From Nostoc sp. PCC 7120 = FACHB-418 (lineage in GTDB: Bacteria; Cyanobacteriota; Cyanobacteriia; Cyanobacteriales; Nostocaceae), in the NCBI RefSeq assembly GCF_000009705.1, contig NC_003272.1:1950001-1982000 (forward strand): 32,000 nucleotides of DNA. The letters are read 5' to 3'. Each line of letters begins with the position of its first letter. The stretch's first letter is position 1. Below, piece by piece: positions 1-30,343 of this stretch. The notes under the pieces are model-generated. The model saw only the letters and a program-made list of their open reading frames with translations. It ran no database searches and was not told the origin of the DNA. The position numbers and the translations under genes were made by a program.

Positions 1-674
1 CACTCTGGATATTTTCTTTGCAACAAATAAGCGTATTTATTTAAAATTTCATTAGCTAATGAGTAGTCAGATTGACCGACATTGCCATAAAAAGAAACAA
101 AAGAAGAAAATAAAGCAATAAACTTTAATTGTGCGATATCGACACAATTTATTAAACTGTGTAAACCTTCTATTTTTACATTATAAACAGTTTGAAAATC
201 CTGTTCTGTTTTATGCTCAATTAACTTGTCTGCCAGATTTCCTGCCCCATGAATAATACCTGTAATTCTTCCCAAGCGTGCGACGACAGGAGCTAATGCA
301 GATTTTAAAGCAGAGGTATCTGTCACATCAATACTTAAATATTCTGCTTCACCGCCTCCTTGTTTAATATCAGCTAGGGTTTGATAAATTTCCCGACTTT
401 GGCATATTTTTTTATAAAGATTCTGCACTTTTATGGGCGTTGGTTTTTCTTGCTGCTCTATTAAATGTTGCATAATTCGTTTTTTTAACTCCGACTCATC
501 AACACAACCAATGCTCCATTCCGGTTCTGTTGCTAAAATTGCAGAACGACCCAACAGAATAAATTTGCACTGATATTTTCGAGCCAAATAAATAATACAT
601 TCCGATGTGATTCCTCTGCCACCACCACTGACAACAACGACAGATGATGAATTTAGTTTAGTATGAGTATTCAT
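1..674 (-). CDS. Ketoreductase (SDR) catalytic subunit, PKS/PUFA-synthase type; partial, 3' end lies beyond the left window edge
   Basis: Not in the supplied ORF track because it runs off the edge. Minus-strand ATG at 674-672. An in-frame stop 10 codons upstream (707-705) means the frame opens at 704. My translation is MNTHTKLNSSSVVVVSGGGRGITSECIIYLARKYQCKFILLGRS...IHGAGNLADK...FSSFVSFYGNVGQSDYSLANE. It contains a Rossmann NADPH motif (SGGGRGIT) and the PKS-KR catalytic Tyr/Asn region (GQxxYxxAN). Confidence 0.8.
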   Translation of the reverse strand, partial: MNTHTKLNSSSVVVVSGGGRGITSECIIYLARKYQCKFILLGRSAILATEPEWSIGCVDESELKKRIMQHLIEQQEKPTPIKVQNLYKKICQSREIYQTLADIKQGGGEAEYLSIDVTDTSALKSALAPVVARLGRITGIIHGAGNLADKLIEHKTEQDFQTVYNVKIEGLHSLINCVDIAQLKFIALFSSFVSFYGNVGQSDYSLANEILNKYAYLLQRKYPE

Positions 675-937
675 GATGAGAATTAAGTAATTGCCAGTTT
701 TTATTTATCGACTACAACTGTTAAATGAAACGAGTAATAATATCATGTTCGTCCAAATTCAAATAATATCTGTGGCGCTTGGTAGTTGGTAATGGGTAAT
801 AGTGAAAAATACCTGTTAGCTATTACCCCACATCAAACCAAATTATATGTAATTAGCCGAACTTGATATAATCTATTGCTAATGGACAAAATTTAACTGG
901 AGTTTAGTTGAGATTATTTTCCTAAACTCCTGACAAT

Positions 938-1699
938 TTAAACTCCTAAATCAGCCAATTCACAAGTCAAAGTAACACGACCTTTTGTGGTATAGCCCAC
1001 TTCTTGAATTAAGGCATTGGGATCATGTAGTTCTGCCAGAATAATTTGAGCAGTAGTAGCTGCATCTAAATCAGGGCTAATATCAAGGGAACGACAAAAT
1101 ACAGCAGGCCACTCTAAATTTAAGGTTTTGGTTAATCCAAATAATCCGCCACTAACTGCACTAAAATCCTGTTGTCCACTTAATCCAAACTCTCCATCTA
1201 AATGAGCCAAAGTCAGAAAACTGCTCCTTCCTTGGTTTGCCGCTTGAGTGAGGCTAGATTTGAGATGTTTGGCTAATAAAAATACTTGCTTAAGAATTGC
1301 CTTATCAGGATTTACTAGAGTATCTGGTTGATTGTAAAGGTACTGGCTGATAGGGTGTAAATGGATAAAAGTGCCAATCAAACCGTAGGTCTGGAAAATC
1401 CCTGCTAATTGATCTTGTAAATGTTCTTCGCTCAAATTGGTCAGAATTACTCGGTGAACTGTAGCAGGAAGGATAGGACGCTTAGGAACTAAAGAATTTG
1501 GGAAACTGAGAACTATAACCTGCCATCCGCGATCGCTTAAACATTGAGCCACTTCAGTCGTGGTTGATGAACCATCGTCGGTTAATAAACAAGTTTGGTA
1601 AGGAGTGTTAGGAACATTCCAAAAATCAGGGGCGGGTAAAGACATCAGTTTCACCTGGTAACGTCCAATCTCTCCATGACTCCGAGGATTCGGAGCCAC
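938..1699 (-). CDS. KR structural (pseudo-KR, no NADPH motif) subdomain-like protein; start uncertain
   Basis: The ORF track gives 938..1825, but its first 42 codons overlap the ACP end of the upstream gene in another frame. Likely starts are GTG at 1699 (10 nt after the upstream stop) or ATG at 1645 (AGGTGA 5 nt upstream). The sequence CLLTDDGSSTTTEVAQCLSDRGWQVIVLSF...GGLFGLTKTLNLEWPAVFCRSLDI resembles the truncated-Rossmann structural half of type I PKS/PfaA ketoreductases. Confidence 0.55.
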   Translation of the reverse strand: MAPNPRSHGEIGRYQVKLMSLPAPDFWNVPNTPYQTCLLTDDGSSTTTEVAQCLSDRGWQVIVLSFPNSLVPKRPILPATVHRVILTNLSEEHLQDQLAGIFQTYGLIGTFIHLHPISQYLYNQPDTLVNPDKAILKQVFLLAKHLKSSLTQAANQGRSSFLTLAHLDGEFGLSGQQDFSAVSGGLFGLTKTLNLEWPAVFCRSLDISPDLDAATTAQIILAELHDPNALIQEVGYTTKGRVTLTCELADLGV

Positions 1700-1709
1700 A
1701 TTAACTAAG

Positions 1710-4700
1710 CTATTTTTTTTCTGCCACCATGATTTGTCCTGCCAAATATTGGACAATTTGTGCCAGGGTACGCTTTTCCGCCAGTTCTTCGGGGCTAAGT
1801 TTGGGTAACTGAGGAAAAGATTCATGTAGAGTTCCCATAATTTCTACACGCTTGATGGAGTCCACGCCTAAATCCGCTTCTAAATCCATCTCTAATTCCA
1901 ACATTTCTGTAGGATAACCAGTTTTATCACTGACAACCTCCATTAATGCTCGGCTAATGTAACTTTCACTAGCCGCAGGAGAAGCAGTTTCAGTGACAAC
2001 TAATGTGGGTTGAGGAGTAGGGGCAGAATAACGAGGCTCTAAATAGTTGGCAATATGGGAGATATGAACGGGTTCAGCTACAGGTGCAGGAGTTACCTTG
2101 GGAGATTCCACTACAGGTGCAACAGGGGTCTTGGGAAGTTCTACCACAGAAGCGACGGGTGTCTGGGGAAGTTCCACCACTGGTGCTGGGACAACAACTG
2201 TTTGCTCCGCAATAGCAGAGGTTGAACCTTGAGGAATAAGAACTTCCTGTTGTTGCAGTAATTGTAGAAATGCTTGAAAACTCTGGGATTGAGTCTTCAC
2301 GTATTGTTCGTGAACCTGTAGCATTTCTTTTTGATGTTGATAAAACTGTTGGAAAAGATAGGCGACAGTATTATGAGTAGAGTTATTCATGGTATTTGTT
2401 TCGTCCTTAGAGATAATAAGTTGGTAATCAGATTGATGGTAAATTTCTCCTAGAGATACCGACTCTTCCATCACAGAGACGGGGGTAATGGCAATCTCAT
2501 CATTTGATGAAGCCACTAAAGGTTGAGCAGGGGAATCTGAAACAACAGTTGCTGCATCAGAAGCAACCTGATCAAGAGGGGTGGAAGCTAGCTGCACTAC
2601 AGGCTCAGGTTTGAAAGCAAATTCAAAGGCAGCTTTTGTTTTGTCACTGATGTAGTTGGTGGCATTGAGCTTAATAGATAATCCTTTAGATTTGCTTTTT
2701 TGAGCAGGCAATTTTCGGGGAGAAGCATCAAGATCCTCCAGGGACAATCCCATTACTCGTAGTTGGATGACTCCTTGACGCAGTTGGACATCACTGTCTT
2801 TTTGGCGACTGGGGTTGAGGGCAATGGCTATATGGGGGCGATCGCCTAATGTCTGCTTAACTAAGTTGGTGAGAATTTGTCGGGGGCCAATTTCAACAAA
2901 GCAATATCCTCCTTGGGCGTAAAGATTTTCGATTTCCTGTGCAAACTGAACGGCATTTAAAAGATGGGCTTCCAACAGTTGCCTGATGGCAGTTGCCTCC
3001 GTCGGATAGGCGTTACCCGTCATGTTTGCATAGACAGGAATTTGAGGAGTATTAAAGGTCACCCGATTGAGCGCCTCTGCAAAGGGTTGACTTGCATGGC
3101 GAACAAAGGGGGTGTGAAAAGCAGCAGAAACAGTTAAAGGAGTAACAGTGTAGCCCTGTTTGCTTAATACTTTCTCTAGGGCGGCAATTTCGGGTTTAGA
3201 ACCAGACAGTACTACTTGTTCTGGAGCATTATAATTAGCAATCTGCACCTTAGTCATACCGGCGATCAGTTGCTTAATTTTTGCCACATCACCACTGACG
3301 GCCAACATCGTACCGCGATCGCAATCATGAGACCCTTGGGGAATAGTCATGGCTTGCCCCCTGGCTTTGATCAGGTAACAATAATCCTCATCACTAAACA
3401 CCCCAGCCGCCCAAAGTGCAGTTAATTCCCCAAAGCTATGACCAGCCACAAAATCGGGCTTAAATCCTACTTTCTGCAAGATTTTATACAATCCCAGGCT
3501 CAAGGCTCCAATGGCAGGTTGAGCGTTTTCTGTGCGCTGTAATTGTTGGGACTGTTGCTTGATTGTTTCTGGGCTAAAGGCAGGAATTGGAAAGACTACA
3601 TCAGACAAAGCTGGCAAGTTATCCTGAGCCATCAACTGATCCAGAGCTTGATAAGCTTGTTGTATCTCTGGGAAGTTCAAGCTAATTTCTCGCCCCATGT
3701 TCAGATATTGCGACCCTTGACCGGGGAACAAAGCTACAACTTTACCCTTGAGAGATAAACCAGTTTGGCGGTAGTAAATCCCTTGGGGATGTTCCCAGGC
3801 AAAAGCCTGGGGCTGTATTTGCAGTTGTTTAATCGCTGCTTTTAGTAATTTTTGGGCTTCTTCTAGAGAGGTAGCCACAAAGCCCACACGGGCAGATGTT
3901 TCGGGGATGAGGGCTGTTTTGCTGTGATTTTGCAGTTGATTATATTGTTCGCCGCCGTTGTCAGATTGCAGTTGCTCAAGAGTCGCTTGACACTTTTGAG
4001 ATAATTGTTGTGGCGTATCAGCCCACAATAAAATAGATTGGGCTGTGGAATGGATGCGATCGCCTCCTTGGGGAAGTGTCGGGGTATATTCTTCCAAAAC
4101 CACATGATAGTCAGTGCCGCCAAATCCAAAAGAACTGACCCCCGCCCGTCTAGGAATGTCGCCATTTTGTATCCAGGGACGAGTTTCTGTATTGATATAA
4201 AAGGGAGACTCTTCTATTTTGAATTTCGGATTAGGTTGGGTGACATTAATGGTCGGTGGCAGGATTTTATGGTGTAAGGCTAGGGTCGCTTTGATTAAAC
4301 TAGCAGCGCCAGCAGCAGCTTTGGTGTGACCGATTTGAGATTTAACACTACCAAGAGCGATTTGTTGTTTTCCTGCCTGATTTTCCGTCAAAACTTGATT
4401 GAGGGCGGTAAATTCACAGAAGTCACCAGCTGGCGTACCTGTACCATGAGCTTCCATTAATCCTAAAGTCGCAGGAGAAAAGCCTGCATCTTCATAGGCT
4501 CGCCGTAAAGCTCGCACTTGTCCCTCAACACGGGGCGCATAGATACTTTTATAGCGACCATCACTGGCAGTGCCAATACCTTTTATTACTGCATAGATGC
4601 GATCGCCATCCCGTTCTGCATCTGCCAACCGCTTGATAACTAACATTCCTAATCCTTCTCCCACCATCATGCCGTCGGATGTAGCATCAAAGGGATTAAG

Positions 4701-5501
4701 ATAGTCTTTTTTAGAAAAAGCTGGGGTTTTACTGAAACACATATAGTTGAGGATGGAGTTGTCTGTGTCAAAGCCCCCGGTCAACATCATGTCACAACGA
4801 CCTTCAATCAGTTCACTAATTGCCATTTTTAAAGCACTTAAAGAACTAGCACAAGCCGCATCAACAACACAGTTAGTTCCTCCCAAATCTAGACGATTGG
4901 TAATTCTTCCTGCGACCACATTAGGCAACATACCTGGGAAAGAATTTTCTGTCCACGGTACAAAAGCTGCCTGCATTTTTTCAATAATTTTTTCGGTCTG
5001 TTCTGCGGATAGACCACTATTTTTTAAAACTTTTTCCCAAACGGGATATTGTAAACGAGCAGTTAAGGGAGTAATACTTTTCCAAAGTCCACTAGCCCCT
5101 AAAATTACTCCTGTTGTTTCTCGATTAAATTCTTTTCCTTCACTATAACCAGCATCTTTCAATGCTTGTTTTGCCAATACCAACGCTAATAAATTTGCTG
5201 AATCCAAAGCTTCAAGAGTATCCGGTGGCAATCCAAATTCTAAGGGATCAAAATCGATTTCTGGGAGAAATCCCCCTGCTCTGGCGTAAGTTTTATCAGG
5301 CGTACTGGGGTCTGGATCATAATAATCTTTAAGGCTCCAAGCTGTTTCTGGAACTTCAGAAATACCGTTGATTCTAGCTAGTATATTGTCCCAATATTGT
5401 TGTAAATTCTCTGCTTTGGCAAACAAGGCTGACATACCAATAATGGCAATAGGTGTTTGTTGTAAAGCGGAATTTTTCAGGGTCTTTTGTTGTGTATCCA
5501 T
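1710..5501 (-). CDS. HglE/PfaA-like polyketide synthase, KS-AT-(Pro-rich repeat linker)-ACP
   Basis: 1263 aa. KS motifs: DAACASS, EAHGTGTPAGD, GHTKAAAG. AT motifs: GHSFGELTALWAAG and SAAFHTPF. The single ACP has LGVDSIKRVEI, typical of PUFA-synthase/heterocyst-glycolipid-synthase carrier domains. The N-terminus (TPIAIIGMSALFAKAENLQQYWDNIL) is PfaA/HglE-like rather than modular-PKS-like. Confidence 0.9.
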   Translation of the reverse strand: MDTQQKTLKNSALQQTPIAIIGMSALFAKAENLQQYWDNILARINGISEVPETAWSLKDYYDPDPSTPDKTYARAGGFLPEIDFDPLEFGLPPDTLEALDSANLLALVLAKQALKDAGYSEGKEFNRETTGVILGASGLWKSITPLTARLQYPVWEKVLKNSGLSAEQTEKIIEKMQAAFVPWTENSFPGMLPNVVAGRITNRLDLGGTNCVVDAACASSLSALKMAISELIEGRCDMMLTGGFDTDNSILNYMCFSKTPAFSKKDYLNPFDATSDGMMVGEGLGMLVIKRLADAERDGDRIYAVIKGIGTASDGRYKSIYAPRVEGQVRALRRAYEDAGFSPATLGLMEAHGTGTPAGDFCEFTALNQVLTENQAGKQQIALGSVKSQIGHTKAAAGAASLIKATLALHHKILPPTINVTQPNPKFKIEESPFYINTETRPWIQNGDIPRRAGVSSFGFGGTDYHVVLEEYTPTLPQGGDRIHSTAQSILLWADTPQQLSQKCQATLEQLQSDNGGEQYNQLQNHSKTALIPETSARVGFVATSLEEAQKLLKAAIKQLQIQPQAFAWEHPQGIYYRQTGLSLKGKVVALFPGQGSQYLNMGREISLNFPEIQQAYQALDQLMAQDNLPALSDVVFPIPAFSPETIKQQSQQLQRTENAQPAIGALSLGLYKILQKVGFKPDFVAGHSFGELTALWAAGVFSDEDYCYLIKARGQAMTIPQGSHDCDRGTMLAVSGDVAKIKQLIAGMTKVQIANYNAPEQVVLSGSKPEIAALEKVLSKQGYTVTPLTVSAAFHTPFVRHASQPFAEALNRVTFNTPQIPVYANMTGNAYPTEATAIRQLLEAHLLNAVQFAQEIENLYAQGGYCFVEIGPRQILTNLVKQTLGDRPHIAIALNPSRQKDSDVQLRQGVIQLRVMGLSLEDLDASPRKLPAQKSKSKGLSIKLNATNYISDKTKAAFEFAFKPEPVVQLASTPLDQVASDAATVVSDSPAQPLVASSNDEIAITPVSVMEESVSLGEIYHQSDYQLIISKDETNTMNNSTHNTVAYLFQQFYQHQKEMLQVHEQYVKTQSQSFQAFLQLLQQQEVLIPQGSTSAIAEQTVVVPAPVVELPQTPVASVVELPKTPVAPVVESPKVTPAPVAEPVHISHIANYLEPRYSAPTPQPTLVVTETASPAASESYISRALMEVVSDKTGYPTEMLELEMDLEADLGVDSIKRVEIMGTLHESFPQLPKLSPEELAEKRTLAQIVQYLAGQIMVAEKK
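1713..1720 (-). repeat. A8 homopolymer (T8 on + strand) immediately 5' of the stop codon of the KS-AT-ACP gene
   Basis: Read directly. The minus strand is ...atg gtg gca gaa aaa aaa tag. The downstream ORF frame reads tgg tgg cag aaa aaa aat agc through the same bases, so the two frames are offset by one nucleotide. Confidence 0.9.
2082..2180 (-). repeat. Three tandem 33-nt (11-aa) Pro-rich repeats in the linker preceding the ACP
   Basis: The translation reads VVELPQTPVAS / VVELPKTPVAP / VVESPKVTPAP. The DNA repeat is visible at 2082-2180 (gtggtggaacttccccagac...). Confidence 0.85.
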
Positions 5502-5712
5502 GTTCCTTTTGTCTTCTCCAATAATGAGTAGTAGGGAAAATATTAGAGGCTTGTAATTTACATATTCTTTTGGGGTTAGATATATTGAATCAACTCAATT
5601 GGTCTAAATTTACGATTTTTGTTTTTGGCATATTCAGTTGTGAATCCTGAATCTATTAACCGTAAATACTGAATTATTTATAACTTCAATATATCTTCTC
5701 TTAATGCTTGAA

Positions 5713-5745
5713 ACAATGGATTATTTTCTGTCAAAAATGGAGATT
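5713..5745 (-). promoter_or_regulatory. Shared 33-nt upstream element, copy proximal to the HglE-like gene
   Basis: The + strand reads acaatggattattttctgtcaaaaatggagatt. Its reverse complement, aatctccatttttgacagaaaataatccattgt, matches 21923-21955 at 32 of 33 positions. It lies 212 nt upstream of the ATG at 5501 and contains TTGACA. Confidence 0.4.
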
Positions 5746-5843
5746 ATTGTTTTTTGCTGTTGGACGATAAAATAAATAAAAATCTGTAGGATATCTTCTA
5801 TTGTCCTTAGTAGTTTTGCATCAAAAAACTAAACTAAATTGCT

Positions 5844-5863
5844 CAAAAATGGAGATTTTTTAT
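5844..5863 (-). promoter_or_regulatory. Second, partial copy of the shared element (20 nt)
   Basis: The + strand reads caaaaatggagattttttat. Its reverse complement, ataaaaaatctccatttttg, is identical to 21917-21936. Confidence 0.35.
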
Positions 5864-6037
5864 TTCTGCACTATGTATCTAACAGTAGATTTATAGGAAT
5901 TATGCACGAAAACGAAAAATCAAGGATTTAGACATGGCTTAAGGGTTCAATGGTATAGGTTTCTGCTAACTTAATACCCTGATTCCCCTACCCACAGCTT
6001 TGATTTTTCGTATCACTGAGGTAGATGCTCAAAAATT

Positions 6038-6110: not shown

Positions 6111-9074
6111 CTAGCGTAGAGGTAGGAACGTAGGAGCGTCAGTAGTGCTTTGGATAGAGACAGGAGTCAAAAGATCCTCAAGCAATAGGAGATATTGTTT
6201 TCCTAAGGATTGAATTGTTGTAGCCAGATGAAAATTACGAGAATATTCAATTGTGATCTCTAAATGACCATCAACTATCAAAAAGAAAAATTCAATGAGT
6301 GTGGTACGTTTTTGATCGGGGAGTGACAAACGACAGTCTCGGACAGTTTGTATAAACTCAAACAGGTTAGACGGAGGAACAGAACGATTCCCTAAATAAT
6401 TAACCCGTATAGGAGTTAGATTGCTGTCAGGGTAGAGGTATTCAGGTAAGCGATCGCCAATCCAATCATAGGTTACACCATTCATGGGTAAACTTTGAAA
6501 GCGATCGCTAATCTCTTGAATAATTTCTTGCCAAATCGCAGATGAACCCAAGGTTATACCTACAGGGAAATTAATTGCATAATTCCCCATACTTTCCATG
6601 AAAGTACTTCCTTGTCCTAAATCTCTGCCGTGACTCCGATGACTAATTACCACCCCTGGGCGATGACTCCAATTAGCCATTAAACGATATAACGGCGCGA
6701 GTAGGATCAAGTAGACATTAGAACCATAATAAGATTTTCCTTGATTCAATAAAAGTTCTGTCTGTTGTTGACTAAGGCGAAAACATTCTTTTTCCGCCGA
6801 GGCTTCTATATTGACCCCTTTCACATGGTCGATAGGAATCTCAAATCCGCTTTTAGCATCAGGGAATTGAGATTGCCAATATTTGAGATGATGCTCAAAG
6901 GTTCCTTTGTTATCCTCATTCACTAATAATTGAACAAAATGTTCATAGGATTCGGATTTAGCCTGTGGAAATGTGGGAGCAACACCCAATAAAAGTTGAT
7001 GATAAGCACTCCAAAGTTCTTTAAATAAAATTGTCGCGCTCAACATATCAGTAATCATATGGTGAGCAATCATCGTAATATCGTAACAATTAGAACTCAC
7101 CTTTACGACGATCGCGGCCGTCATCGGCCAACTGTCAATCTGAATTTTTTTGGCTACTGCTTCCATGTATTGCTCAATTTTCAGATTCCGTTCTTCTTGA
7201 CTTACCTGACTACCATCCCAATATTCAGCAACAAAGGATTGTGTTTGATTGAGAATATGTTGTTGCCATTGTCCCTGATTCTGTACAAAAATCGTGCGGA
7301 AAGCGGCATGACGATGAACAAGGTGATTAACCGCTTGATTGAAGATATCTACATTGAGGGATTGATGATAGAGAAAACGGGTATAACCCAACCACTGATA
7401 AGGAGGTTCAAAATATTTGACTAACCAACGTTGAGCTGGGCCTAGAGGTAATAAAGGTAGTAAAGAAGGAGAGGAATCAGGGGAATCAGAGGTTAATTGA
7501 GTCACTAATGCTTTGCGGTCTAATTTCCCATTATGATTTTTGGGTAAACTATCCAACCAGAGAAATCTTTGGGGAATCATGTAATGAGGAAGCTTCTGTT
7601 CTAGATATTCCTTGAGGAAACGATTTTTGATTTTATTTCCCGATATACAAGCAACTAATCGCTTTTGCCCTTCCCCATAATCAACGGCCAGAGCTGCGGC
7701 TTCACGGACATCGGGATGAGTGGTTAACACACTTTCGATTTCTCCCAATTCAATGCGGAAACCGCGAATTTTCACTTGATGATCTATGCGTCCATGATAC
7801 TCAATGGTTCCATCTGGCAATTCTTTGACCAAATCTCCTGTCCGATAAATATAATCACCAGGAATATCAGTAAAGGGGTTAGGACAAAAAGCCTGAGCAG
7901 TTTTCTCTGGATCTTTGAGATAGCCTAATGCCAATTGGACTCCACCAAGCCACAGTTCTCCCATATTTCCAGGTTGTACAGGCTGCATCCCCCCGTCCAG
8001 AACTTTTACATAAACATTATCGATAGCTTTACCAATGGGAATTTGCGTCGTCAGCCGTTCATCAGGACGTTCCGTAATCAAGTGACAAGTAACGTCAATG
8101 GAAGCTTCTGTAGGGCCATAAAGATTGGCTAGTCCGGTTTTGAGTCCATGACGGTCAATCCACCTCTGAATAAAGGACATGGGTAATGCTTCCCCACTAA
8201 ACATCAACCAACGTAATTGGGGAAAACTCCAAGTTTCATTTTCTAAAGCACTAATAAACTCCCCAAACAGGGAAGGAACAAAGTGCATGACATTAATTTG
8301 AGTTTCTTGAATCCATCGAGCGAATTCCCAAGGATTGAGAACTACTTCCCGTTGCACAGGGCAAATAGTCGCGCCTGACATTAATGTCCAGAAAATTTCC
8401 CAAACCGAGATATCAAAACAAAAAGAGGTTCTTTGCGCTACGCGATCGCCTGGTTGTAATGAAAAAGTATTCTGCATCCATGTCAGACGATTCATGTAAC
8501 CTCGATGATTCAGCATTACCCCTTTGGGACGACCTGTGGAGCCAGAGGTGTAGAGAATCACCATTAAATCGTCGGGACTGTTACAAAGTTCTAAAGCATC
8601 ATCACTTAAACTTTGCCAGGTTTCAGCAGTGATTTGAGTTAATGATTGAATTTCTCCTAAAGGTTCACCCTCATCTAAAAACATCACCGTTTGTAAAGGT
8701 AACGCTTCCTGAACACAAGCCACTAATTGTTGACTAACTTGATGTTCTGTAAGTAGAGTCTGGATAGTGGCGTGTTCTAGGATGTAACGCAGTCTGTCAG
8801 TGGGATAACCAGGATCGAGGGGGATATAACTCCCGCCAGCTTTGAGAATACCTAAAATACCAATCATCATTCTGGCTCCCCGTTCAGCCATAATCCCGAC
8901 TCTGGTATTGGGGGCTACTCCTTGAGTGCGTAAATAAGTAGCCACTTGATTCGAGAGACGATCTAACTGTTGATAAGTCAGAGGATTGGTTTCATCAAGA
9001 ACAGCGATCGCATCAGGGGTTAATTGCGCTTGCTGAATAATCTGATAATAGGGTATTTCTGAAGTTAAGGTCAT
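6111..9074 (-). CDS. NRPS adenylation-condensation didomain protein (A-C, no carrier domain)
   Basis: 987 aa. A-domain core motifs: LTYQQLD, LKAGGSYIPLDP, YTSGSTGRPKGV, FDISVWE, NLYGPTE, GELWLGGVQLALGYL, YRTGDL, GRIDHQVKIRGFRIELGEIE, NGKLDRK. About 25 residues after A10 the C1-like motif GPAQRWL begins. The C-domain His motif is HHMITDM (7047-7064). No LGxDS carrier motif occurs anywhere in the protein. Confidence 0.9.
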   Translation of the reverse strand: MTLTSEIPYYQIIQQAQLTPDAIAVLDETNPLTYQQLDRLSNQVATYLRTQGVAPNTRVGIMAERGARMMIGILGILKAGGSYIPLDPGYPTDRLRYILEHATIQTLLTEHQVSQQLVACVQEALPLQTVMFLDEGEPLGEIQSLTQITAETWQSLSDDALELCNSPDDLMVILYTSGSTGRPKGVMLNHRGYMNRLTWMQNTFSLQPGDRVAQRTSFCFDISVWEIFWTLMSGATICPVQREVVLNPWEFARWIQETQINVMHFVPSLFGEFISALENETWSFPQLRWLMFSGEALPMSFIQRWIDRHGLKTGLANLYGPTEASIDVTCHLITERPDERLTTQIPIGKAIDNVYVKVLDGGMQPVQPGNMGELWLGGVQLALGYLKDPEKTAQAFCPNPFTDIPGDYIYRTGDLVKELPDGTIEYHGRIDHQVKIRGFRIELGEIESVLTTHPDVREAAALAVDYGEGQKRLVACISGNKIKNRFLKEYLEQKLPHYMIPQRFLWLDSLPKNHNGKLDRKALVTQLTSDSPDSSPSLLPLLPLGPAQRWLVKYFEPPYQWLGYTRFLYHQSLNVDIFNQAVNHLVHRHAAFRTIFVQNQGQWQQHILNQTQSFVAEYWDGSQVSQEERNLKIEQYMEAVAKKIQIDSWPMTAAIVVKVSSNCYDITMIAHHMITDMLSATILFKELWSAYHQLLLGVAPTFPQAKSESYEHFVQLLVNEDNKGTFEHHLKYWQSQFPDAKSGFEIPIDHVKGVNIEASAEKECFRLSQQQTELLLNQGKSYYGSNVYLILLAPLYRLMANWSHRPGVVISHRSHGRDLGQGSTFMESMGNYAINFPVGITLGSSAIWQEIIQEISDRFQSLPMNGVTYDWIGDRLPEYLYPDSNLTPIRVNYLGNRSVPPSNLFEFIQTVRDCRLSLPDQKRTTLIEFFFLIVDGHLEITIEYSRNFHLATTIQSLGKQYLLLLEDLLTPVSIQSTTDAPTFLPLR

Positions 9075-19134: not shown

Positions 19135-19392
19135 TCAAAGATATAATTCCCCCAAGCGTTTAGCCAATTGAGCAATAGTTGGGTAGTTGAATATTAAAAC
19201 GGGATTTAACTCTTTACCCAACCATTTTTCTAATCGACCTAGTAAAATCAAAGCTTTACTGGAATTTAGATCATAATTATCAAATGATTCTTCCATGTCA
19301 ATATCATCTGGATCAACATCGAGTTGTTGAGCAAACTGATCGATTAACCAACTTTGAATATCTTCTACAGAGCAGGGTTGAATGGTTTTCAT
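19135..19392 (-). CDS. Stand-alone acyl carrier protein
   Basis: 85 aa. The layout ...FDNYDLNSSKALILLGRLEKWLGKELNPVLIFNYPTIAQLAKRL is PKS-type ACP-like, as seen in carriers that partner with acyl-AMP ligases. The usual DS is replaced by NS at the phosphopantetheine site. Confidence 0.75.
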   Translation of the reverse strand: MKTIQPCSVEDIQSWLIDQFAQQLDVDPDDIDMEESFDNYDLNSSKALILLGRLEKWLGKELNPVLIFNYPTIAQLAKRLGELYL

Positions 19393-23155: not shown

Positions 23156-24103
23156 ATGCGTACTTTTCTCATTGGCTTACTAGGATTAGCGAGTGCTACA
23201 GTTTTGACAATTCCTCAAGCAGCACAAGCTCAAACCTTTGATTTTGATCGACTGGAATTTATTGAATCTCGTCCACTTCCAGCTAATGGATCTCTTTTCT
23301 TTTTTGGAGATCAAAACCAGAATGAAGGATATGCAGCTTACTCTAATCTAGACCGGAATGCTCCAGATGCTGGACACGTCGGCTTTCGCAGTGATCTTAA
23401 TAATCGTTATTATGTAACTGGTCGGGAAAATAGCCCAGATCCTACGGGGGCGACGCGTTCTGCGACCCTTGAAAGCCTCGCAAATTTTCCGAACTTAATG
23501 AATTACTTGAATAATAATGGCATTCCATTAAGTGATATTGGTTACGGTTTTGGGCAGAAACCTGGCTTTTCTGTAACTCAATCCTTGAATTTAGGGGCAG
23601 ATGTTTTGGGACAAGATTGGTTTGGTCGTCCTGGTTCTCCAGTCGAAGAATCAATTTACCGCGCGCGTCCAGAAAGTTTTGAGCGTTATTTAACGTATCA
23701 AACCACTAAAATTATTAAGTTTGGATATTCAGATACCTTTTTTGCTTCAGCTGATGATAACCCAGATAGCGTCTTTGGTAATCCCAATATATTTTTTTCT
23801 AATCCAGTTTCCCCCTCCAAAGCACCTGGCTTAGAGGGATTGGGATCAGGAATTGCTGATGCTTTTTTGCAAGATGTAGTAGCAGGTGGTGGAAAAATTC
23901 AAGAGTTTTCTGAAGACATTCTTGATCCAGAGGATTTAGCGGTCTCAGTCAATGGAGGATTTGAAATTTATACATTTTCCTTTCCCATAGAAATCAGAAT
24001 TGTCCGAGAAGTCCCTGAATCGTCATCGATTTTAGGTTTAATGTTCTTGGCAGGAGGTGGCGTTGTTACCCAAATAAAACGACACAAAAGAAGTGTTCGA
24101 TAG
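23156..24103 (+). CDS. Secreted PEP-CTERM-like protein (VPES variant), paralog of 24360..25343
   Basis: 315 aa. Signal peptide (…IPQAAQA/QT). The C-terminus is VPESSSILGLMFLAGGGVVTQIKRHKRSVR. It shares blocks with the next protein: F(I/V)(E/K)(S/T)RPL, ATLxxxxxFxNxxxxLxxNxI, FGYSD, GxADAFLxDV, KIQxxSED, (E/Q)(I/L)RIV(R/D)(E/V)PE. Confidence 0.8.
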   Translation: MRTFLIGLLGLASATVLTIPQAAQAQTFDFDRLEFIESRPLPANGSLFFFGDQNQNEGYAAYSNLDRNAPDAGHVGFRSDLNNRYYVTGRENSPDPTGATRSATLESLANFPNLMNYLNNNGIPLSDIGYGFGQKPGFSVTQSLNLGADVLGQDWFGRPGSPVEESIYRARPESFERYLTYQTTKIIKFGYSDTFFASADDNPDSVFGNPNIFFSNPVSPSKAPGLEGLGSGIADAFLQDVVAGGGKIQEFSEDILDPEDLAVSVNGGFEIYTFSFPIEIRIVREVPESSSILGLMFLAGGGVVTQIKRHKRSVR

Positions 24104-24359: not shown

Positions 24360-25343
24360 ATGCGAACTCAATACCTCTCTATATTACTGGGGATGACTGT
24401 AACAGCAACCGCAAATATGATATCCGCAGCACCAGTGCGTGCGGCAAGCCTGACTTGCGAAACTGGCAATTTCTTCGATTATAGCTCAGTCAAATTTGTC
24501 AAAACTCGACCCCTTTCATCTAATAACTGTCTACGGTTATTTGGAGAGCGCGTGGGTGCGACAGATCCCGATCCTCAAGGATTTGTGGCCTATGGATTCG
24601 GTCATATAGAAATGAGTCTCAATTCTCCTAATAATCCTGCTCCCTATTATGCTGCTGGGATTGACTTTAGCCCTGAAAATCTACCAGGGGCCAGACAAGC
24701 AGCTACTTTACTTGATGACATTACAGGCTTTGGCAATTTTGCGACTTTCTTAACTGAGAATAACATTACGACTGATCGGATTGGATTTAGTTTTGGTGCC
24801 AAAGATAGGGACTTTACCAAAACTTGGAATTTAGGAGAGGATATCAATGGACAGAACTATTTTTCTTCTCCTACTTCCACATTAGAAGAGCGTATCTATT
24901 CGGCTAATCCTGACGAAGTAGAAAGTTTTCTTGTGCTAGATGGTAACAAATTTGTCACCTTTGGCTATAGCGATATTTATTCATTTTTAGAATATGGTGC
25001 AACTCGCGCTCCTGACGATGACACCGAAGCCATTATTAGCAACCCCTTTAGTGCATTTAAAGTTGCGGGACTTAATGGGTTAAGTTATGGTTTAGCTGAT
25101 GCGTTTTTAGCAGATGTAAGAGGGAATAAAATCCAATTGGTGAGTGAAGATGCTGGAGTTGTTCCTGATTTCGTATCTGTCTCCGATCCTTTCGGTCCTT
25201 TAGATCCCATTGTCTCGATTCGTTTTCCAGTTCAATTAAGAATTGTAGACGTTCCTGAACCTTCTATAACCATCGGCTTTTTGGGGCTAGGTTTACTAGC
25301 ATTTGGCTCTCGGCTCAAAAATAAAAATCGTCATCGTTGTTAA
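24360..25343 (+). CDS. Secreted PEP-CTERM protein, paralog of 23156..24103
   Basis: 327 aa. Signal peptide (…SAAPVRA/AS). The C-terminus is VPEPSITIGFLGLGLLAFGSRLKNKNRHRC. Alignable by eye with the preceding protein along its whole length. Confidence 0.8.
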   Translation: MRTQYLSILLGMTVTATANMISAAPVRAASLTCETGNFFDYSSVKFVKTRPLSSNNCLRLFGERVGATDPDPQGFVAYGFGHIEMSLNSPNNPAPYYAAGIDFSPENLPGARQAATLLDDITGFGNFATFLTENNITTDRIGFSFGAKDRDFTKTWNLGEDINGQNYFSSPTSTLEERIYSANPDEVESFLVLDGNKFVTFGYSDIYSFLEYGATRAPDDDTEAIISNPFSAFKVAGLNGLSYGLADAFLADVRGNKIQLVSEDAGVVPDFVSVSDPFGPLDPIVSIRFPVQLRIVDVPEPSITIGFLGLGLLAFGSRLKNKNRHRC

Positions 25344-25440: not shown

Positions 25441-26973
25441 ATGCAAGATACCAATCCTGCTTCATGTTCATCACCGGAAGAAACTCTAGAGATTGCTGCC
25501 TCCTCTGTTGAACAGAATAAAACTCCTAAAAGCTCTTTGAGGTTTTCTTGGGGATTATGCCTAAGTAGCCTACTCTTGTTGGGATTGGGTTTTTGGCTGG
25601 GTTCAATTCGTCAAACAGTAGAACCCATTAGTTCCGCAATGGCAGAAAATCAAAATTTCCTGCCCGTTGAAGTGGATAATCTAGTTGCTGCCAGTTCCTA
25701 TCAGCAGTCTCGTACCTATACCGGAGAAATTGTTGCCCAAAATACTAGTAATTTAGGATTTGAACGGGCTGGTAAAGTTGTCCAACTTGCGGTAGAAGCA
25801 GGACAATGGGTGAGTGCAGGCACTCCCTTAGCCCGTTTAGATACCAGTCAGTTGATGGCTCAAAAGCAAGAATTATTTGCTCAAAAGCAACAGGCTCTGT
25901 TCCAATTGAGAGAGTTGCAAGCTGGGCCGAGGGCAGAAACCATTGATACAGCGAGAGCTAAACTAGCACAAGAACAGGCGCTACTCAAGGAAATGCAATC
26001 AGGGCCTCGGATACAAACGATCGCCTCAGCAAGGGCTAATGTCAATAATTTACAGGAACAGTTAGAATTAGCACGCTCTAAAAGTAAGCGGCGAGAAGCC
26101 CTTTATAATCAAGGAGCGATCGCTCGTGAACAATTTGACGAAGCGATTACCGATGTTAATAGTCAACAAGCCAGGGTAAAACAAGCCCAAAGTCAACTGG
26201 ATGAATTATTAGCCGGAACTCGCTCAGAAGTGATTACTGCTCAACAGGCTAGGGTAAAACAAGCCCAAAGTCAGCTCAATGAATTATTAGCCGGAACTCG
26301 TTCAGAAGTGATTGAGGCTCAAAAAGCCGCCCTCAAACAATTACAAAGCCGTCTAGCCAGTTTAGAGCTTGATTTAGAAAAAAGTGTTCTCAAAGCTCCT
26401 TTTTCTGGTAAAGTTTCTCAGCGTTATCTTGATCTAGGCACAGCCGTTTCTAGTGGACAAGCGATCGTCCGTCTGGTTCAAGTAGAACAGGTGAAAGCCC
26501 ATATAGGCATTCCTGCATCCCTCACCTCTCAAATTAAAATCGGGGAAGTTCAATCAATACAGGTGGGTCAAAAATCCTATCGGGCAAAGGTTGATTCCTT
26601 CTTACCAGAACTAGACAAAGCTACTCGTACCATAACCGTAGTTTTAAAATTGGAAGATGCTGCCAGTAAAACTTTAACAGCAGGGCAAATCGTCAATTGG
26701 CAACTAAAACAAAAGATATCAACTTCCGGTTATTGGCTGCCAACAACAGCATTAGTACGTGGTATACGGGGGTTGTGGTCTGTCTACATTTTAGGAACAG
26801 TTCCCGGAGGCTTTGAAGTAGAACGTCAAGATGTAGAAGTTCTTTATACTGACGGGGAACGGGTTCTGGTACGGGGAACCCTAGAAGGTAATGAACAAAT
26901 TATTACTAATGGCACAAATCGGCTGGTTCCTGGCCAAAAAGTACGTCCTATCTCATTAGGGAGTTCCAATTAA
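25441..26973 (+). CDS. HlyD-family periplasmic adaptor (membrane fusion protein) of an efflux system
   Basis: 510 aa. N-terminal TM anchor (LCLSSLLLLGLGFWLGSI). Lipoyl-like segment (GEIVAQNTSNLGFERAGKVVQL...GQWVSAGTPLARLD). A long coiled coil carries four G(P/T)RxExI repeats. The C-terminal beta-barrel/MP region includes APFSGKVSQRYLDLGTAV. Confidence 0.85.
   Translation: MQDTNPASCSSPEETLEIAASSVEQNKTPKSSLRFSWGLCLSSLLLLGLGFWLGSIRQTVEPISSAMAENQNFLPVEVDNLVAASSYQQSRTYTGEIVAQNTSNLGFERAGKVVQLAVEAGQWVSAGTPLARLDTSQLMAQKQELFAQKQQALFQLRELQAGPRAETIDTARAKLAQEQALLKEMQSGPRIQTIASARANVNNLQEQLELARSKSKRREALYNQGAIAREQFDEAITDVNSQQARVKQAQSQLDELLAGTRSEVITAQQARVKQAQSQLNELLAGTRSEVIEAQKAALKQLQSRLASLELDLEKSVLKAPFSGKVSQRYLDLGTAVSSGQAIVRLVQVEQVKAHIGIPASLTSQIKIGEVQSIQVGQKSYRAKVDSFLPELDKATRTITVVLKLEDAASKTLTAGQIVNWQLKQKISTSGYWLPTTALVRGIRGLWSVYILGTVPGGFEVERQDVEVLYTDGERVLVRGTLEGNEQIITNGTNRLVPGQKVRPISLGSSN
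26164..26319 (+). repeat. In-frame 2 x 78-bp tandem duplication inside the MFP coiled coil
   Basis: Unit 1 (26164-26241) and unit 2 (26242-26319) differ at only a few positions. The translations are QQARVKQAQSQLDELLAGTRSEVITA and QQARVKQAQSQLNELLAGTRSEVIEA. Confidence 0.9.
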
Positions 26974-27238: not shown

Positions 27239-30200
27239 ATGAACAATCTTTTTTATCAGAATGTCCGGCTACTAATATTAACAGTTTTAGCGATCGCTGT
27301 TTGGGGCTTATCTTCCTTTTTTAGTTTACCTCGCATTGAAGATCCAGAAATTACTCCCCGATTTGCGGTGATTACAACGAGTTTTCCAGGTGCGGCACCA
27401 GAACGGGTCGAAACCCTAATCACCGATAAATTAGAACAATCCCTATTTGAAGTAGAAGAAATTAATAATATTGAATCCACCTCACGTCTGGGATTCTCCA
27501 GCATTACAGTTGAGTTAAACGAAACAATCAACGATGTCGATCCTGTTTGGTCACGGGTGCGGGCTAAAATCAATGATACGATTCCCCTATTGCCTTCAGG
27601 TGCCGCAACTCCTAAATTTGAACAGTCGAAACCTAAAGCTAATGCTTTAATTGTCGCTTTGACTTGGGATTTGGAATCAGCCCCAAATTATGCAATTTTA
27701 AGCCGTTGGGCGCAAGAATTAGACGATCAATTACGTTTGATTGGGGGAACAGAAAAGGTCGAGCAGTTTGGTACCCCCCAAGAAGAAATTGCCATTGAGG
27801 TTAACCCAAAACAACTAACGAATTTAGGGTTAACAATACAATCCGTATCTCAACAAATTTTACAGAGTGATGCTAAAGTTGCGGCAGGGCAACTGCGGAG
27901 CAACCAAAGTAATTTATTATTAGAAATTAATGGGGAACTTGATTCTCTTGACCGTCTTAATCGCTTATCAATTCAATTGGGTAACTCTAGCAATGTAGTA
28001 CGACTAGGAGATATTGCTCAGATTAAAAAGGGAATTTTAGATCCCCCTAGAGAATTAGCTTTAGTAAAGGGTCGTCGAGCGATCGCCATCTCTGCATTTG
28101 TTGAATCAGAACAGCGTTTGGATGCTTGGGCAGCGATCGCCAATACAACCTTGAATAAATTCCAGCAACAACTGCCAAACGGCGTTGGTCTGCAAATACT
28201 GTTTGACCAAAGTCATTACGTAGAACAGCGTCTCAACGAAGTGTTAATGAATTTAATCACTGGAGCTGTTTTGGTGGTTGGCATTACCCTATTCATGATG
28301 GGCTGGAAGTCTTCGTTAATTGTTGGTTCTGCTTTACCTCTGTCTGTTTTCATGGTCTTTGGTAGCATGAAGCTTTTAGGAGTTCCGCTACATCAAATTT
28401 CTGTGACTGGTCTGATTATTGCCTTGGGACTGTTAATTGATAACGCCATTATCGTTGTAGATGAAGTTCAAATTTATTTACGAGAAGGACTAACACCTAA
28501 AAAAGCCGTTGCTACTACTGTCCGGGAAATCTTTTCTCCCTTACTGGCATCCACATTTACCAGTGTTCTGGCTTTTGTACCGATCGCCACTGCACCTGGA
28601 GGAACGGGAGAGTTTACGGGAACTATTGGGGTAACTGTAATTCTCGCCCTAGTTAGTTCTTTATTTCTAGCTCTCACGGTGATTCCCGCTTTAGCAGGTC
28701 GGTTACATTATTGGAAACCCACACCAGCATCAGGAAGTTGGTGGCAAGTGGGTTTTTCTCACCATCACTTAGGACAACTTTACAGTTGGAGTCTGGATCG
28801 CACCTTCAGCAGACCCTTATTGAGCATAGCTTTAAGCTTGATTCTACCATTGTGGGGTTTTATCTCCTTGGCTAATCTGGAGCAGCAATTTTTCCCCCCA
28901 ACAGATCGCGGTCAATTTTATGTAAATTTTGAATTGCCCATTCAAGCTTCTTTGCAACAAACACAATCCCAAGTGACTCAAGCGCGAGAATTGATGTTAC
29001 GCCATCCCGAAATTGCCGATGTTCAATGGTTTATCGGCAAAAGTGCGCCACCTTTTTATTACAATGTGATTCAAAATCGGGAAAATTCTCCTAATTATGC
29101 TCAGGGTCTTGTCCAACTTCAGAAAAATGTCAAGTCTGGCTCTTTAATCCGAACCTTGCAACAAGAACTTGATCAAGCCTTTCCCGCAGCCCAAATTATT
29201 GTCCGACAGTTAGAACAAGGTCCACCTTTTGACGCACCCATTGAACTGCGAGTTTATGGATCTGATTTAGATCGATTGCGAGAGTTAGGAGATCAACTGC
29301 GAGCTGAATTAGCCAAAACACCCAATGTCATCCATACCCGCGCTAATTTAACGGAAACCTTACCGAAGTTGGCATTAAATCTAGATGAAGAACAACTGCG
29401 TTTAGCAGGATTAGACAAAACCGCCGTTGCTAGACAATTGGACACCAATTTAGAGGGAATCGTCGGGGGTTCGATTTTCGAGGGGACGGAAGAATTGCCA
29501 GTAAGGGTGCGTAGTTTAGAATCACAACGAGGGAATTTAGGGGATATTGCTTCATCAACCCTTTTATCTCCAGAAAACTCAAATCAGTCCGGTAATAGGG
29601 TTGTTCCCTTGTCTGCTGTAGGAAATTTGGAAATTGTTCCAGATGTGGTGACGATTTCTCGTCGCAACGGCAAAAGAGTTAATACTGTACAGGGTTTTAT
29701 TCCAGCAGGAATGCTAGCAGCTCAGGTACAGACTGACTTTCAAGATCGTTTAACAGCAAGTAACTTTACCCTACCCTCTGGTTATTCTTGGGATTTTGGC
29801 GGAGAAGAAGGGGAACGGGGTGATGCTTTAAGTAACCTCATCTCTACCGTTGGGGTGTTAATGATTATGATGATCGCCAGTTTAGTTCTAACTTTTAGTT
29901 CTTTTCGCCTGGCAAGCATTATCCTAGTGGTTGCTATTTTATCGATGGGTTTAGGATTGGGATCGTTAGCTTTGTTTAATTATCCTTTTGGATTTACGGC
30001 AATTTTAGGCATGATTGGTCTGATGGGCGTTGCAGTCAATGATTCAATTGTGGTTCTGAGTTCCCTTAATCATGACCCCAAAGCCCGTCAAGGCGATCGC
30101 CATGCAGCCAGAAAAGTAGTCATCCGTTCCACCCGTCATGTCATTGCAACTACTTTAACCACTATTATTGGATTTACCCCCCTATTATTAGATGCCAGTG

Positions 30201-30343
30201 GTTTTTGGCCACCGCTTGCCATTACCATTGTCGGCGGGTTAGGAGGAGCTACTTTAATTGCTTTATATTTTGTCCCTTCTGTATATTTGTTGCTGCAACG
30301 CTCATTAACTAAGGAGTCAAGAAAAAATAACTTGAACAATTAG
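27239..30343 (+). CDS. RND-family efflux permease (AcrB/CzcA-like, 12-TM architecture)
   Basis: 1034 aa. The N-terminus has a TM helix followed by a periplasmic loop (LPRIEDPEITPRFAVITTSFPGAAPERVETLITDKLEQ). Two hydrophobic six-helix blocks lie at about residues 335-490 and 860-1020, with GLLIDNAIIVVDE and MGVAVNDSIVV motifs. Confidence 0.9.
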   Translation: MNNLFYQNVRLLILTVLAIAVWGLSSFFSLPRIEDPEITPRFAVITTSFPGAAPERVETLITDKLEQSLFEVEEINNIESTSRLGFSSITVELNETINDVDPVWSRVRAKINDTIPLLPSGAATPKFEQSKPKANALIVALTWDLESAPNYAILSRWAQELDDQLRLIGGTEKVEQFGTPQEEIAIEVNPKQLTNLGLTIQSVSQQILQSDAKVAAGQLRSNQSNLLLEINGELDSLDRLNRLSIQLGNSSNVVRLGDIAQIKKGILDPPRELALVKGRRAIAISAFVESEQRLDAWAAIANTTLNKFQQQLPNGVGLQILFDQSHYVEQRLNEVLMNLITGAVLVVGITLFMMGWKSSLIVGSALPLSVFMVFGSMKLLGVPLHQISVTGLIIALGLLIDNAIIVVDEVQIYLREGLTPKKAVATTVREIFSPLLASTFTSVLAFVPIATAPGGTGEFTGTIGVTVILALVSSLFLALTVIPALAGRLHYWKPTPASGSWWQVGFSHHHLGQLYSWSLDRTFSRPLLSIALSLILPLWGFISLANLEQQFFPPTDRGQFYVNFELPIQASLQQTQSQVTQARELMLRHPEIADVQWFIGKSAPPFYYNVIQNRENSPNYAQGLVQLQKNVKSGSLIRTLQQELDQAFPAAQIIVRQLEQGPPFDAPIELRVYGSDLDRLRELGDQLRAELAKTPNVIHTRANLTETLPKLALNLDEEQLRLAGLDKTAVARQLDTNLEGIVGGSIFEGTEELPVRVRSLESQRGNLGDIASSTLLSPENSNQSGNRVVPLSAVGNLEIVPDVVTISRRNGKRVNTVQGFIPAGMLAAQVQTDFQDRLTASNFTLPSGYSWDFGGEEGERGDALSNLISTVGVLMIMMIASLVLTFSSFRLASIILVVAILSMGLGLGSLALFNYPFGFTAILGMIGLMGVAVNDSIVVLSSLNHDPKARQGDRHAARKVVIRSTRHVIATTLTTIIGFTPLLLDASGFWPPLAITIVGGLGGATLIALYFVPSVYLLLQRSLTKESRKNNLNN

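Follow-up and report, generated by a model that had tools for sequence, protein, structure and literature searches.

Gene content and extent of the locus

The window analyzed here, a 32-kb stretch of the forward strand of contig NC_003272.1 of Nostoc sp. PCC 7120 (positions 1,950,001-1,982,000), harbors a minus-strand biosynthetic block that lies back-to-back with a plus-strand block for PEP-CTERM proteins, a membrane fusion protein (MFP) and a resistance-nodulation-division (RND) permease, with an AT-rich gap of about 2 kb between them. The neighbors of the assembly line remain beside it in many cyanobacteria, and the two blocks probably make up one system for synthesis and export. Exact protein look-ups identified BAB78012-BAB78022 as all1646-alr1656 of Nostoc/Anabaena sp. 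PCC 7120, and the location in the all1643-asl1650 region, which an earlier note on this DNA had suggested, is correct. The gene content of the window runs from all1644 (partial) through alr1656; the same proteins are found, identical, in Trichormus variabilis NIES-23 (BAY67267-78) and Anabaena FACHB-709, and A. variabilis ATCC 29413 has orthologues of the all1646-alr1656 proteins. On public contigs the cluster extends about 8 kb beyond the left window edge with genes for a KR-DH protein (585 aa), a PfaC-like protein of 1601 aa that contains two FabA domains, an enoyl reductase of the PfaD type (525 aa) and an MFS transporter. The whole cluster, all1641-alr1656, measures roughly 38 kb, most of which lies in the window. 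Scans of the window detected neither Rfam families nor tRNAs.

All of the biosynthetic genes are on the minus strand. A stand-alone ACP of 85 aa (asl1650, 19135..19392; Pfam PP-binding, E 5e-15) is followed by all1649 (14098..18810; 1570 aa) with the domain order KS-AT-KR-ACP, by all1648 (9320..14083; 1587 aa) with the order KS-AT-ACP-C-PCP, and by the nonribosomal peptide synthetase (NRPS) gene all1647 (6111..9074; 987 aa), which encodes an A domain and a terminal C domain and has neither a carrier domain nor a TE. The next gene, all1646 (1710..5501; BAB78012), known as HglE2, encodes a PfaA-like KS-AT-ACP protein of 1263 aa, recognized by Pfam and with 1453 bits by TIGR02813. It is followed by all1645 (938..1699), whose 253-aa product is a Rossmann-like segment that corresponds to the structural KR subdomain in PfaA (TIGR02813 positions 1756-1982, E 1.9e-33) and gave no match, KR included, in a Pfam scan. 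This gene splits the pfaA homologue in two and has a counterpart at 7534-8295 of the public contig L029. The 5' part of all1644 (1..674) runs off the left edge; its translation contains a catalytic KR (SGGGRGIT Rossmann motif, YSLAN) and then PS-DH, in agreement with the full-length gene of this type on L029 (585 aa, Pfam KR and PS-DH). The domains and open reading frames (ORFs) of the earlier note were recovered where it had placed them, except that the KR which it assigned to the HglE-like gene is the separate gene at 938-1699, and the catalytic KR starts at 674. The ORF that a mechanical listing gives at 938-1825 (295 aa) has 116 nt in common with the end of all1646; in public gene calls all1645 starts at 1699, 11 nt past the all1646 stop. 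The KS-AT regions of all1649 and all1648 are DNA-level paralogues, visible as direct repeats 4820 nt apart. The AT motifs of the two modules differ (YAFH in all1649, HAFH in all1648), which, judged by AT specificity motifs, hints at different extender units.

The plus-strand block begins with three PEP-CTERM genes. The products of alr1652 (22329..23108; 259 aa), alr1653 (23156..24103; 315 aa) and alr1654 (24360..25343; 327 aa) all carry a signal peptide (Sec type in alr1652 and alr1653) and a C-terminal tail composed of VPEPS or VPESS, a hydrophobic stretch and a basic cluster, and they pass the cutoff of 16 of the NCBIfam PEP-CTERM model TIGR02595 with scores of 19.6, 17.3 and 17.8, respectively. 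The first is modeled as a beta-sandwich protein (family A); the second has a beta-rich domain of about 260 aa, and the third is its paralogue with 34-36% identity (family B). A relationship between the two families was considered and rejected, as only the PEP-CTERM sorting tail aligns between them, and neither family had a significant match to Protein Data Bank (PDB) chains in sequence searches. The AlphaFold (AF2) model of alr1653 (pLDDT 84.9, pTM 0.80) has no PDB match at E<=0.001 in Foldseek; weak matches to OmpW and to Bet v 1/START proteins, with template modeling (TM) scores of about 0.15, were not usable. Distant family-B members are found at the N terminus of large proteins of the cell surface that carry Calx-beta, DUF11 or type-IX secretion tails, which fits a cell-surface module. 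For alr1652 (pLDDT 80.7), Foldseek retrieved the C-terminal CR domain of HtaA (6jsa) with an E value of 3e-5 and a probability of 1.0. Membership in the HtaA/ChtA family of heme-binding proteins was nevertheless rejected, since a Pfam scan gave no HtaA match and the 14 family members examined share no conserved His that could pair with their one nearly invariant Tyr. The alr1652 model is better read as a ligand-binding-type beta-sandwich than as a heme protein.

Downstream follow alr1655 (25441..26973), which encodes an RND-type periplasmic adaptor (MFP; TIGR01730, 187 bits versus a cutoff of 95), and alr1656 (27239..30343), which encodes the RND inner-membrane permease (PF00873, 531 bits). 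A strong plus-strand terminator-like hairpin with a 14-bp stem and a T run (30386..30417) just after alr1656 closes the alr1652-alr1656 unit, inside which no comparable hairpin was found. Within alr1655, an in-frame tandem duplication of 78 nt (26156-26311; 88% identical) encodes two 26-aa copies (…ARVKQAQSQL[D/N]ELLAGTRSEVI…); it sits in the coiled-coil hairpin, which it would lengthen.

The biosynthetic half is not new to the literature. In PMC13291983 (JACS Au 2026) it is catalogued as an orphan, uncharacterized "Clade II" cluster that combines polyketide synthase (PKS), NRPS and polyunsaturated fatty acid (PUFA) synthase genes. The features given there, i.e., a split pfaA with an intervening Rossmann-fold protein ("HP with Rossmann fold", the all1645 type), a fused pfaB/C-like gene, a pair of PKS modules and a single NRPS module, are also those of the PCC 7120 cluster. 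The example from T. variabilis NIES-23, listed there as "NRPS, T1PKS, hglE-KS, zeamine-like", carries the same proteins as the window, and its antiSMASH/MIBiG entry in the supplement reads "No" for a known cluster, in accordance with the orphan status proposed in the earlier note. The text and supplement of PMC13291983, as far as searched, make no mention of the PEP-CTERM, MFS, MFP and RND genes of this clade. Literature searches for PEP-CTERM in combination with PKS, NRPS or biosynthetic gene clusters found no description either. What seems to be new to the literature is the conserved association of this half with two families of PEP-CTERM proteins and with exporters that depend on an MFP.

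Conservation of the linkage between the two halves

The alr1653/alr1654 family is small and mostly cyanobacterial (a search of 5.8 billion proteins gave 70 matches, and one of 1.84 billion gave 70 representatives with E<=1e-3), and an alignment of it served as the anchor of a forward test with one genome per species. It yielded 24 loci, none of them from the Anabaena/Trichormus group, which were examined by tblastn and ORF clustering. An all1647-type A-C gene (53-69% identity) is located at most 10 kb from the alr1653/4-family gene in 15 of the 24 loci, which usually also carry the C-PCP end of an all1648-type gene. Four of the remaining nine end at contig edges on the relevant side, and in a further one (L017) the NRPS gene is on the same contig. 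In the reverse test, which was anchored on all1647 homologues, alr1652- and/or alr1653/4-family genes were present in all five cyanobacterial loci, i.e., in Microcystis, Moorena producens JHB, Anabaena cylindrica and two contigs from metagenome-assembled genomes (MAGs) or metagenomes. The Microcystis locus has genes for an RND permease (75%), an MFP (64%), an alr1654-like protein (70%) and two alr1652-like proteins, convergent with the NRPS gene, and that of M. producens JHB has MFS, alr1652-like, alr1654-like, MFP (53%) and RND (68%) genes. In A. cylindrica an alr1653-like gene is placed immediately 3' of a fused C-PCP-A-C gene; a 3.9-Mb MAG contig carries a REC-AraC regulator, MFS, DUF4386, three PEP-CTERM genes and MFP; and a 69-84% identical relative is collinear, with Pfa genes, MFS, amine oxidase and an alr1652-like gene. 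The one non-cyanobacterial case, a C-PCP-A-C protein (44%) from a Pseudomonadota MAG, is accompanied by an MFP-MFS-OMF set and lacks the PEP-CTERM family.

The order that recurs in these loci starts with PKS/NRPS and MFS genes and may go on with an SRPBCC cyclase, a P450 and DUF4386. Next come an alr1652-like gene and one alr1653/4-like gene or a pair of them, and at the end stand either MFP and RND or MFP, FtsX and ABC genes. The MFP-RND version recurs in L025, L027, L032 and L033 (RND 52-75% identity) and the MFP-FtsX-ABC version in L012, L015, L019, L021 and L024. The MFS gene that elsewhere stands between the NRPS and PEP-CTERM genes has its orthologue (50-73% identity) in the MFS gene beyond the left edge of the window. 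Linked loci span at least four orders, with Nostocales, Oscillatoriales-type cyanobacteria, Pleurocapsales and Chroococcales, and include the unicellular or non-heterocystous genera Microcystis, Moorena, Capilliphycus and Pleurocapsa. Since at least three arrangements occur across these orders (divergent in PCC 7120, convergent in Microcystis and collinear elsewhere), inherited gene order alone is no explanation. The PEP-CTERM genes track the Ser-type NRPS and MFS genes and not the Pfa/HglE genes, which most related loci lack; the Ser-type C-PCP-A-C unit with its surface and export partners is far more widespread than the Pfa part.

The plus-strand block might still be a general envelope or multidrug-efflux operon that happens to lie beside a secondary-metabolite cluster. 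Some family-B genes are indeed away from any all1647-type NRPS gene (L006 and L008), alr1652 and alr1655 did not follow all1649 and all1647 in a FurA-depletion dataset, and a motif shared upstream of both halves was found only in PCC 7120-type sequences. On the other hand, adjacency persists in 15 of 24 and in 5 of 5 independent loci, which belong to several orders, and it has survived inversions and transpositions. With about one all1647-type gene per genome of 6-9 Mb, chance adjacency within 10 kb amounts by our own estimate to about 0.3% per genome, which is negligible. Synteny thus virtually excludes independence of the halves, a view that we regard as highly improbable. The two halves form one conserved unit, as the earlier note had proposed, and their adjacency is decidedly not a peculiarity of this genome.

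A second genomic context for family B may exist. In L006 (1-7957, 15240-20909) and L008 (3-9579), as well as in L012, L014 and L018, the family-B gene is found near genes for CHAT, CHASE2, DUF928 and DUF1822 proteins. The same Nostoc-type signaling context comprises Ser/Thr kinase-GAF-HisKA and REC-PAS-GGDEF-EAL proteins, and L006 additionally has MFS, alr1652-like and DUF4386 genes. A gene for a flavin amine oxidase of about 425 aa is present in Microcystis (L032, 21825-22934), Moorena (L033, 8184-9473) and a close relative (L048, 8480-9757), in two of these immediately ahead of the PEP-CTERM genes. PCC 7120 lacks it, and a search of the 2-kb stretch from all1651 to alr1652 for a decayed remnant found none.

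A candidate pathway from synthesis to the cell surface

The combination of gene content, domain order and conserved neighborhood points to a single unit for the synthesis, export and surface handling of an acyl-serine-type lipid, a reading that we favor with moderate confidence. In a first step, as suggested by the domains, the PUFA-synthase-like enzymes encoded by all1646-all1642 would supply a long acyl chain, and the ACP asl1650 would pass it to the PKS modules of all1649 (KS-AT-KR-ACP) and all1648 (KS-AT-ACP). The C domain of all1648 would join the chain to an amino acid, which the A domain of all1647 would have loaded in trans onto the PCP of all1648. The specificity residues of this A domain, DIWHMSLIDK, were obtained by alignment to a GrsA fragment; they are close to DVWHLSLIDK, which we take to be the serine code, and the predicted substrate is serine. 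DIWH[I/V/M]SLIDK is present in full in 69 of 75 all1647 homologues, or in 72 of 75 if three sequences with one alignment gap are included, and the whole family is hence expected to use one amino acid. The catalytic His is kept in both C domains (EHLIADG in all1648, HHMITDM in all1647). Since the order is C-PCP followed by A-C and no thioesterase is present, the A domain should load the preceding PCP, and the last C domain must release the chain, which in the case of an acyl-serine intermediate could proceed by cyclization or by transfer to a second nucleophile.

Relatives of the cluster offer hints on both ends of this assembly line. In L034 and L036 the chain is supplied by a fatty acyl-AMP ligase (FAAL) in place of Pfa, and a FAAL-ACP gives the starter where Pfa genes are absent, which suggests that the Pfa-type enzymes supply a long acyl starter in PCC 7120. 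An alternative route would be the convergent joining of two separately made parts, as in the zeamine pathway. At the other end, a short-chain dehydrogenase is fused after the terminal C domain in relatives. In many of them the C terminus of all1648 and all1647 form one C-PCP-A-C protein, often with this C-terminal dehydrogenase (e.g., L015, 2900-8656). The C-PCP-A-C architecture also occurs outside cyanobacteria, namely in Clostridium pasteurianum and in Methylococcales and Pseudomonadota MAGs, with 44-45% identity and the same Ser-like code.

Zeamine assembly is finished by a stand-alone C domain. Zeamine and fabclavine pathways (PMC5811116) likewise combine a secondary-lipid synthase with PKS/NRPS modules and end with a condensation step and not with a thioesterase. 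They differ in phylum and module content, and the PCC 7120 cluster has no aminotransferase domains; zeamine clusters lack PEP-CTERM surface proteins, with RND genes noted only as neighbors in Dickeya.

In a second step, the conserved MFS protein (all1641) and the MFP-RND pair alr1655/alr1656 would remove the amphiphile from the cytoplasmic membrane and the periplasm, presumably through the TolC-like channel of the cell, while in other cyanobacteria a DevBCA/MacAB-like MFP-FtsX-ABC set would stand in for the RND permease. As in tripartite RND efflux systems, adaptor and permease are encoded together; the difference is that no outer membrane efflux protein (OEP) gene is adjacent. In a third step, the Sec-exported families A and B would be sorted to the outer envelope via their PEP-CTERM tails and would bind, retain or relay the exported lipid there. 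Mycobacterial systems of the phthiocerol dimycocerosate (PDIM) type combine a PKS-made lipid, an MmpL (RND) exporter and the periplasmic carrier lipoprotein LppX. What the PCC 7120 unit would share with them is the logic, with a lipid made by a PKS, an RND-family transporter dedicated to it and an exported protein, encoded alongside, that takes the lipid toward the cell surface, and surface handling by PEP-CTERM proteins would resemble the role of LppX/LprG for PKS-made lipids exported by MmpL. The analogy ends there, as no sequence or fold relationship is known to connect the two and anchoring by PEP-CTERM/exosortase here contrasts with lipoprotein acylation. With the PEP-CTERM/exosortase systems (cyanoexosortases CrtA/CrtB), all three proteins share the PEP motif, the hydrophobic helix, the basic tail and the N-terminal signal peptide. 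What differs is the genomic partner, which is a PKS/NRPS cluster, and the absence of exosortase and exopolysaccharide genes from the window and from the 10 kb on either side.

Pumps beside biosynthetic clusters commonly act in export or resistance, and the same genes could therefore serve self-protection, if the product were a membrane-active toxin or allelochemical that the MFP-RND (or ABC) pump and the surface proteins keep off the envelope of the producer by efflux and sequestration; building or decorating the envelope would then not be their task. Related hybrid lipids of the zeamine type are antibiotics (PMC5811116), the non-cyanobacterial locus L036 has an MFP-MFS-OMF efflux set without the PEP-CTERM family, and the growth defect of an alr1655 insertion mutant would fit a build-up of unexported product. 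However, two dedicated families of surface-sorted proteins would be an unusual resistance device, the defect is specific to growth without combined nitrogen, and the measured expression of the cluster is very low, so that self-protection is conceivable but doubtful.

The alr1655 mutant, included in PMC8262864 as an "unrelated" control, failed to grow without combined nitrogen, and hglE2 is listed among the heterocyst-specific genes that require SigE (PMC4390870). Together with the affinity of Pfa/HglE-type enzymes to those that make the chains of heterocyst glycolipids, these reports might indicate a minor envelope lipid of heterocysts (or akinetes), which the pump would place outside the outer membrane in the way in which DevBCA/HgdBC-HgdD deposit heterocyst glycolipids. 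The locus indeed shares with the hgl island of Anabaena PCC 7120 a PfaA/HglE-type synthase, an MFP-dependent exporter nearby and the reported link to nitrogen step-down. It differs by its additional PKS and NRPS modules, by an RND instead of an ABC exporter and by the absence, among the called genes of the window and its 10-kb flanks, of a glycosyltransferase (HglT), an HglB/HetM-type reductase and a DevBCA/HgdBC-type ABC exporter. Moreover, Saito and Awai (2020) state by title that HglEA, and not HglE2, synthesizes heterocyst glycolipids, the alr1655 strain is an uncomplemented control mutant, and the NRPS/MFS/PEP-CTERM/exporter core occurs in the heterocyst-less genera named above. We thus consider a heterocyst lipid unlikely, and the analogy to heterocyst glycolipids drawn in the earlier note is weak. 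The alr1655 phenotype and the SigE dependence nevertheless keep a nitrogen-related role in Anabaena open.

Regulation and the weight of the evidence

The gene next to asl1650, all1651 (19530..20363, minus strand), encodes a protein of 277 aa with an N-terminal PAS domain and an AraC helix-turn-helix (HTH_18/HTH_AraC, E 1e-21 and 1e-20). AraC-type regulators recur in the loci L013 and L035, and All1651 is likely the regulator of the pathway. It has been reported as a direct target of both FurA and FurC, which bound all1651 in electrophoretic mobility shift assays (EMSA) (PMC12282138). Depletion of FurA increased all1649 9.5-fold and all1647 3.9-fold, genes that were filed under "siderophore/cyanotoxin biosynthesis" in that dataset.

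This Fur connection and the HtaA CR domain as the best structural match of alr1652 would also suit a metal or heme system, i.e., an amphiphilic chelator or carrier under Fur control whose loaded ligand, or heme itself, is captured by HtaA-like surface proteins. Several observations speak against it. The acyl-serine skeleton has no obvious high-affinity iron ligands, the cluster lacks a TonB-dependent receptor and an ABC importer, all1649 and all1647 gave negative results in the FurA EMSA, transcript counts in the FurA dataset were very low, and alr1652 has neither a Pfam match to HtaA nor a conserved His to pair with its Tyr. A function in metal or heme acquisition is accordingly regarded as quite improbable.

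A sequence of 32 nt, ATCTCCATTTTTGRCAGAAAATAATCCATTGT, is present upstream of both halves. One copy (5713-5744, minus strand) is located about 212 nt upstream of all1646 and the other (21924-21955, plus strand) some 375 nt upstream of alr1652; with respect to their genes, both copies face the same way. The two are identical at 31 specified positions and differ at one A/G position, none of 100 shuffles gave a match, and the similarity around the copies reaches 76 nt at 76%. Two partial copies are found upstream of all1646 at 5843-5869 and 5603-5629 (region 5603..5869, minus strand). The element holds two TCCATT hexamers 21 nt apart (TCCATT-N15-TCCATT), a spacing that is reminiscent of the direct-repeat sites of AraC-type regulators and makes it a candidate common operator of all1646 and alr1652. 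Neither a blastn-short search of every fetched locus, among them the relatives L048 and L049 with 69-84% identity, nor two metagenome scans, one without a match and one with nine chance matches in unrelated DNA, recovered it elsewhere. With its occurrence so far confined to PCC 7120-type sequences, the element does not yet qualify as a conserved operator. The shared element of the earlier note is real, albeit with a length of 32 and not 33 nt and with this restricted distribution.

Several findings weigh against the proposed unit, which would make an acyl-serine-type lipid, export it and handle it at the surface. On the side of synthesis, the serine assignment depends on a specificity code and on a GrsA reference fragment. 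Concerning export, no TolC/OEP-type gene was found in the window or its 10-kb flanks; an outer-membrane partner encoded elsewhere, e.g., HgdD, may take this place. The part of the PEP-CTERM proteins, and with it the display of the lipid proposed in the earlier note, is an inference from synteny and sorting signals. No exosortase gene is present in the window or its 10-kb flanks, and no exopolysaccharide genes within the same distance; PDB fold and sequence searches gave no relative of known function for alr1653 and alr1654; and the likeness of alr1652 to HtaA is moderate (TM 0.40/0.57, 15% identity). The loci L006, L008, L012 and L016 hold family-B genes without an all1647-type NRPS gene, beside signaling genes (CHAT, CHASE2, DUF928, DUF1822) or other PKS/NRPS genes, and family B is therefore not strictly tied to the cluster. 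Regarding a common regulation, the TCCATT-N15-TCCATT motif was not found outside PCC 7120-type loci, alr1652 and alr1655, unlike all1649 and all1647, did not rise upon FurA depletion (one dataset), and the transcript levels of the cluster in this dataset were very low, about 1-4 normalized units.

PEP-CTERM proteins are abundant in cyanobacteria, e.g., 35 in N. punctiforme, and few of them have an assigned role. A bolder version of the favored reading would make the lipid the envelope partner of the PEP-CTERM proteins, either as the lipid acceptor to which exosortase transfers these proteins once the PEP-CTERM tail is cleaved, so that they would be anchored to a secondary-metabolite lipid, or with both families as obligate extracytoplasmic chaperones or receptors that its placement on the surface would require. 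We consider this distinctly unlikely. If true, a natural-product pathway would have PEP-CTERM proteins among its integral parts, and the long-sought acceptor or partner of exosortase substrates could be tested in a tractable model organism. Irrespective of this, hybrid PUFA-synthase/PKS/NRPS lipid clusters of cyanobacteria have so far been catalogued without a known product or function, and synteny now connects a Ser-type lipopeptide assembly line, throughout the phylum and in bloom-forming Microcystis as well, with two specific PEP-CTERM families and with an exporter that depends on an MFP. This provides better cluster borders for genome mining and a concrete, testable function for anonymous surface proteins. 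The genetically routine strain PCC 7120 offers a handle, with the existing alr1655 mutant and the candidate regulator All1651 under FurA/FurC.

Further features lie at the margins of the plus-strand block. Directly after the RND gene, a gene for a ShlB/FhaC-type Omp85 protein (30942-32000, plus strand; POTRA_2 and ShlB; 585 aa on public contigs) runs off the right edge and is followed by housekeeping genes. It was rejected as a member of the unit, as a homologue occurs beside a family-B gene only in L012, and it probably lies outside. In the AT-rich gap between all1651 and alr1652, a GC-rich palindromic stretch (21530-21640; …GGGCAATGCCCACC…GGTGGGCAATGCCCACCC…) resembles the dispersed repeat hairpins of cyanobacteria. 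Between the 32-nt element and the start of alr1652, a small inverted-repeat element (22055-22277) has its arms, CTTAGAGGATGTTTGAAAAGT and ACTTTTCAAACATCCTCTTAG, on either side of G/C-rich hairpins (CCCCCTTTTTAAGGGGG) and resembles a mobile or repeat element of miniature size.

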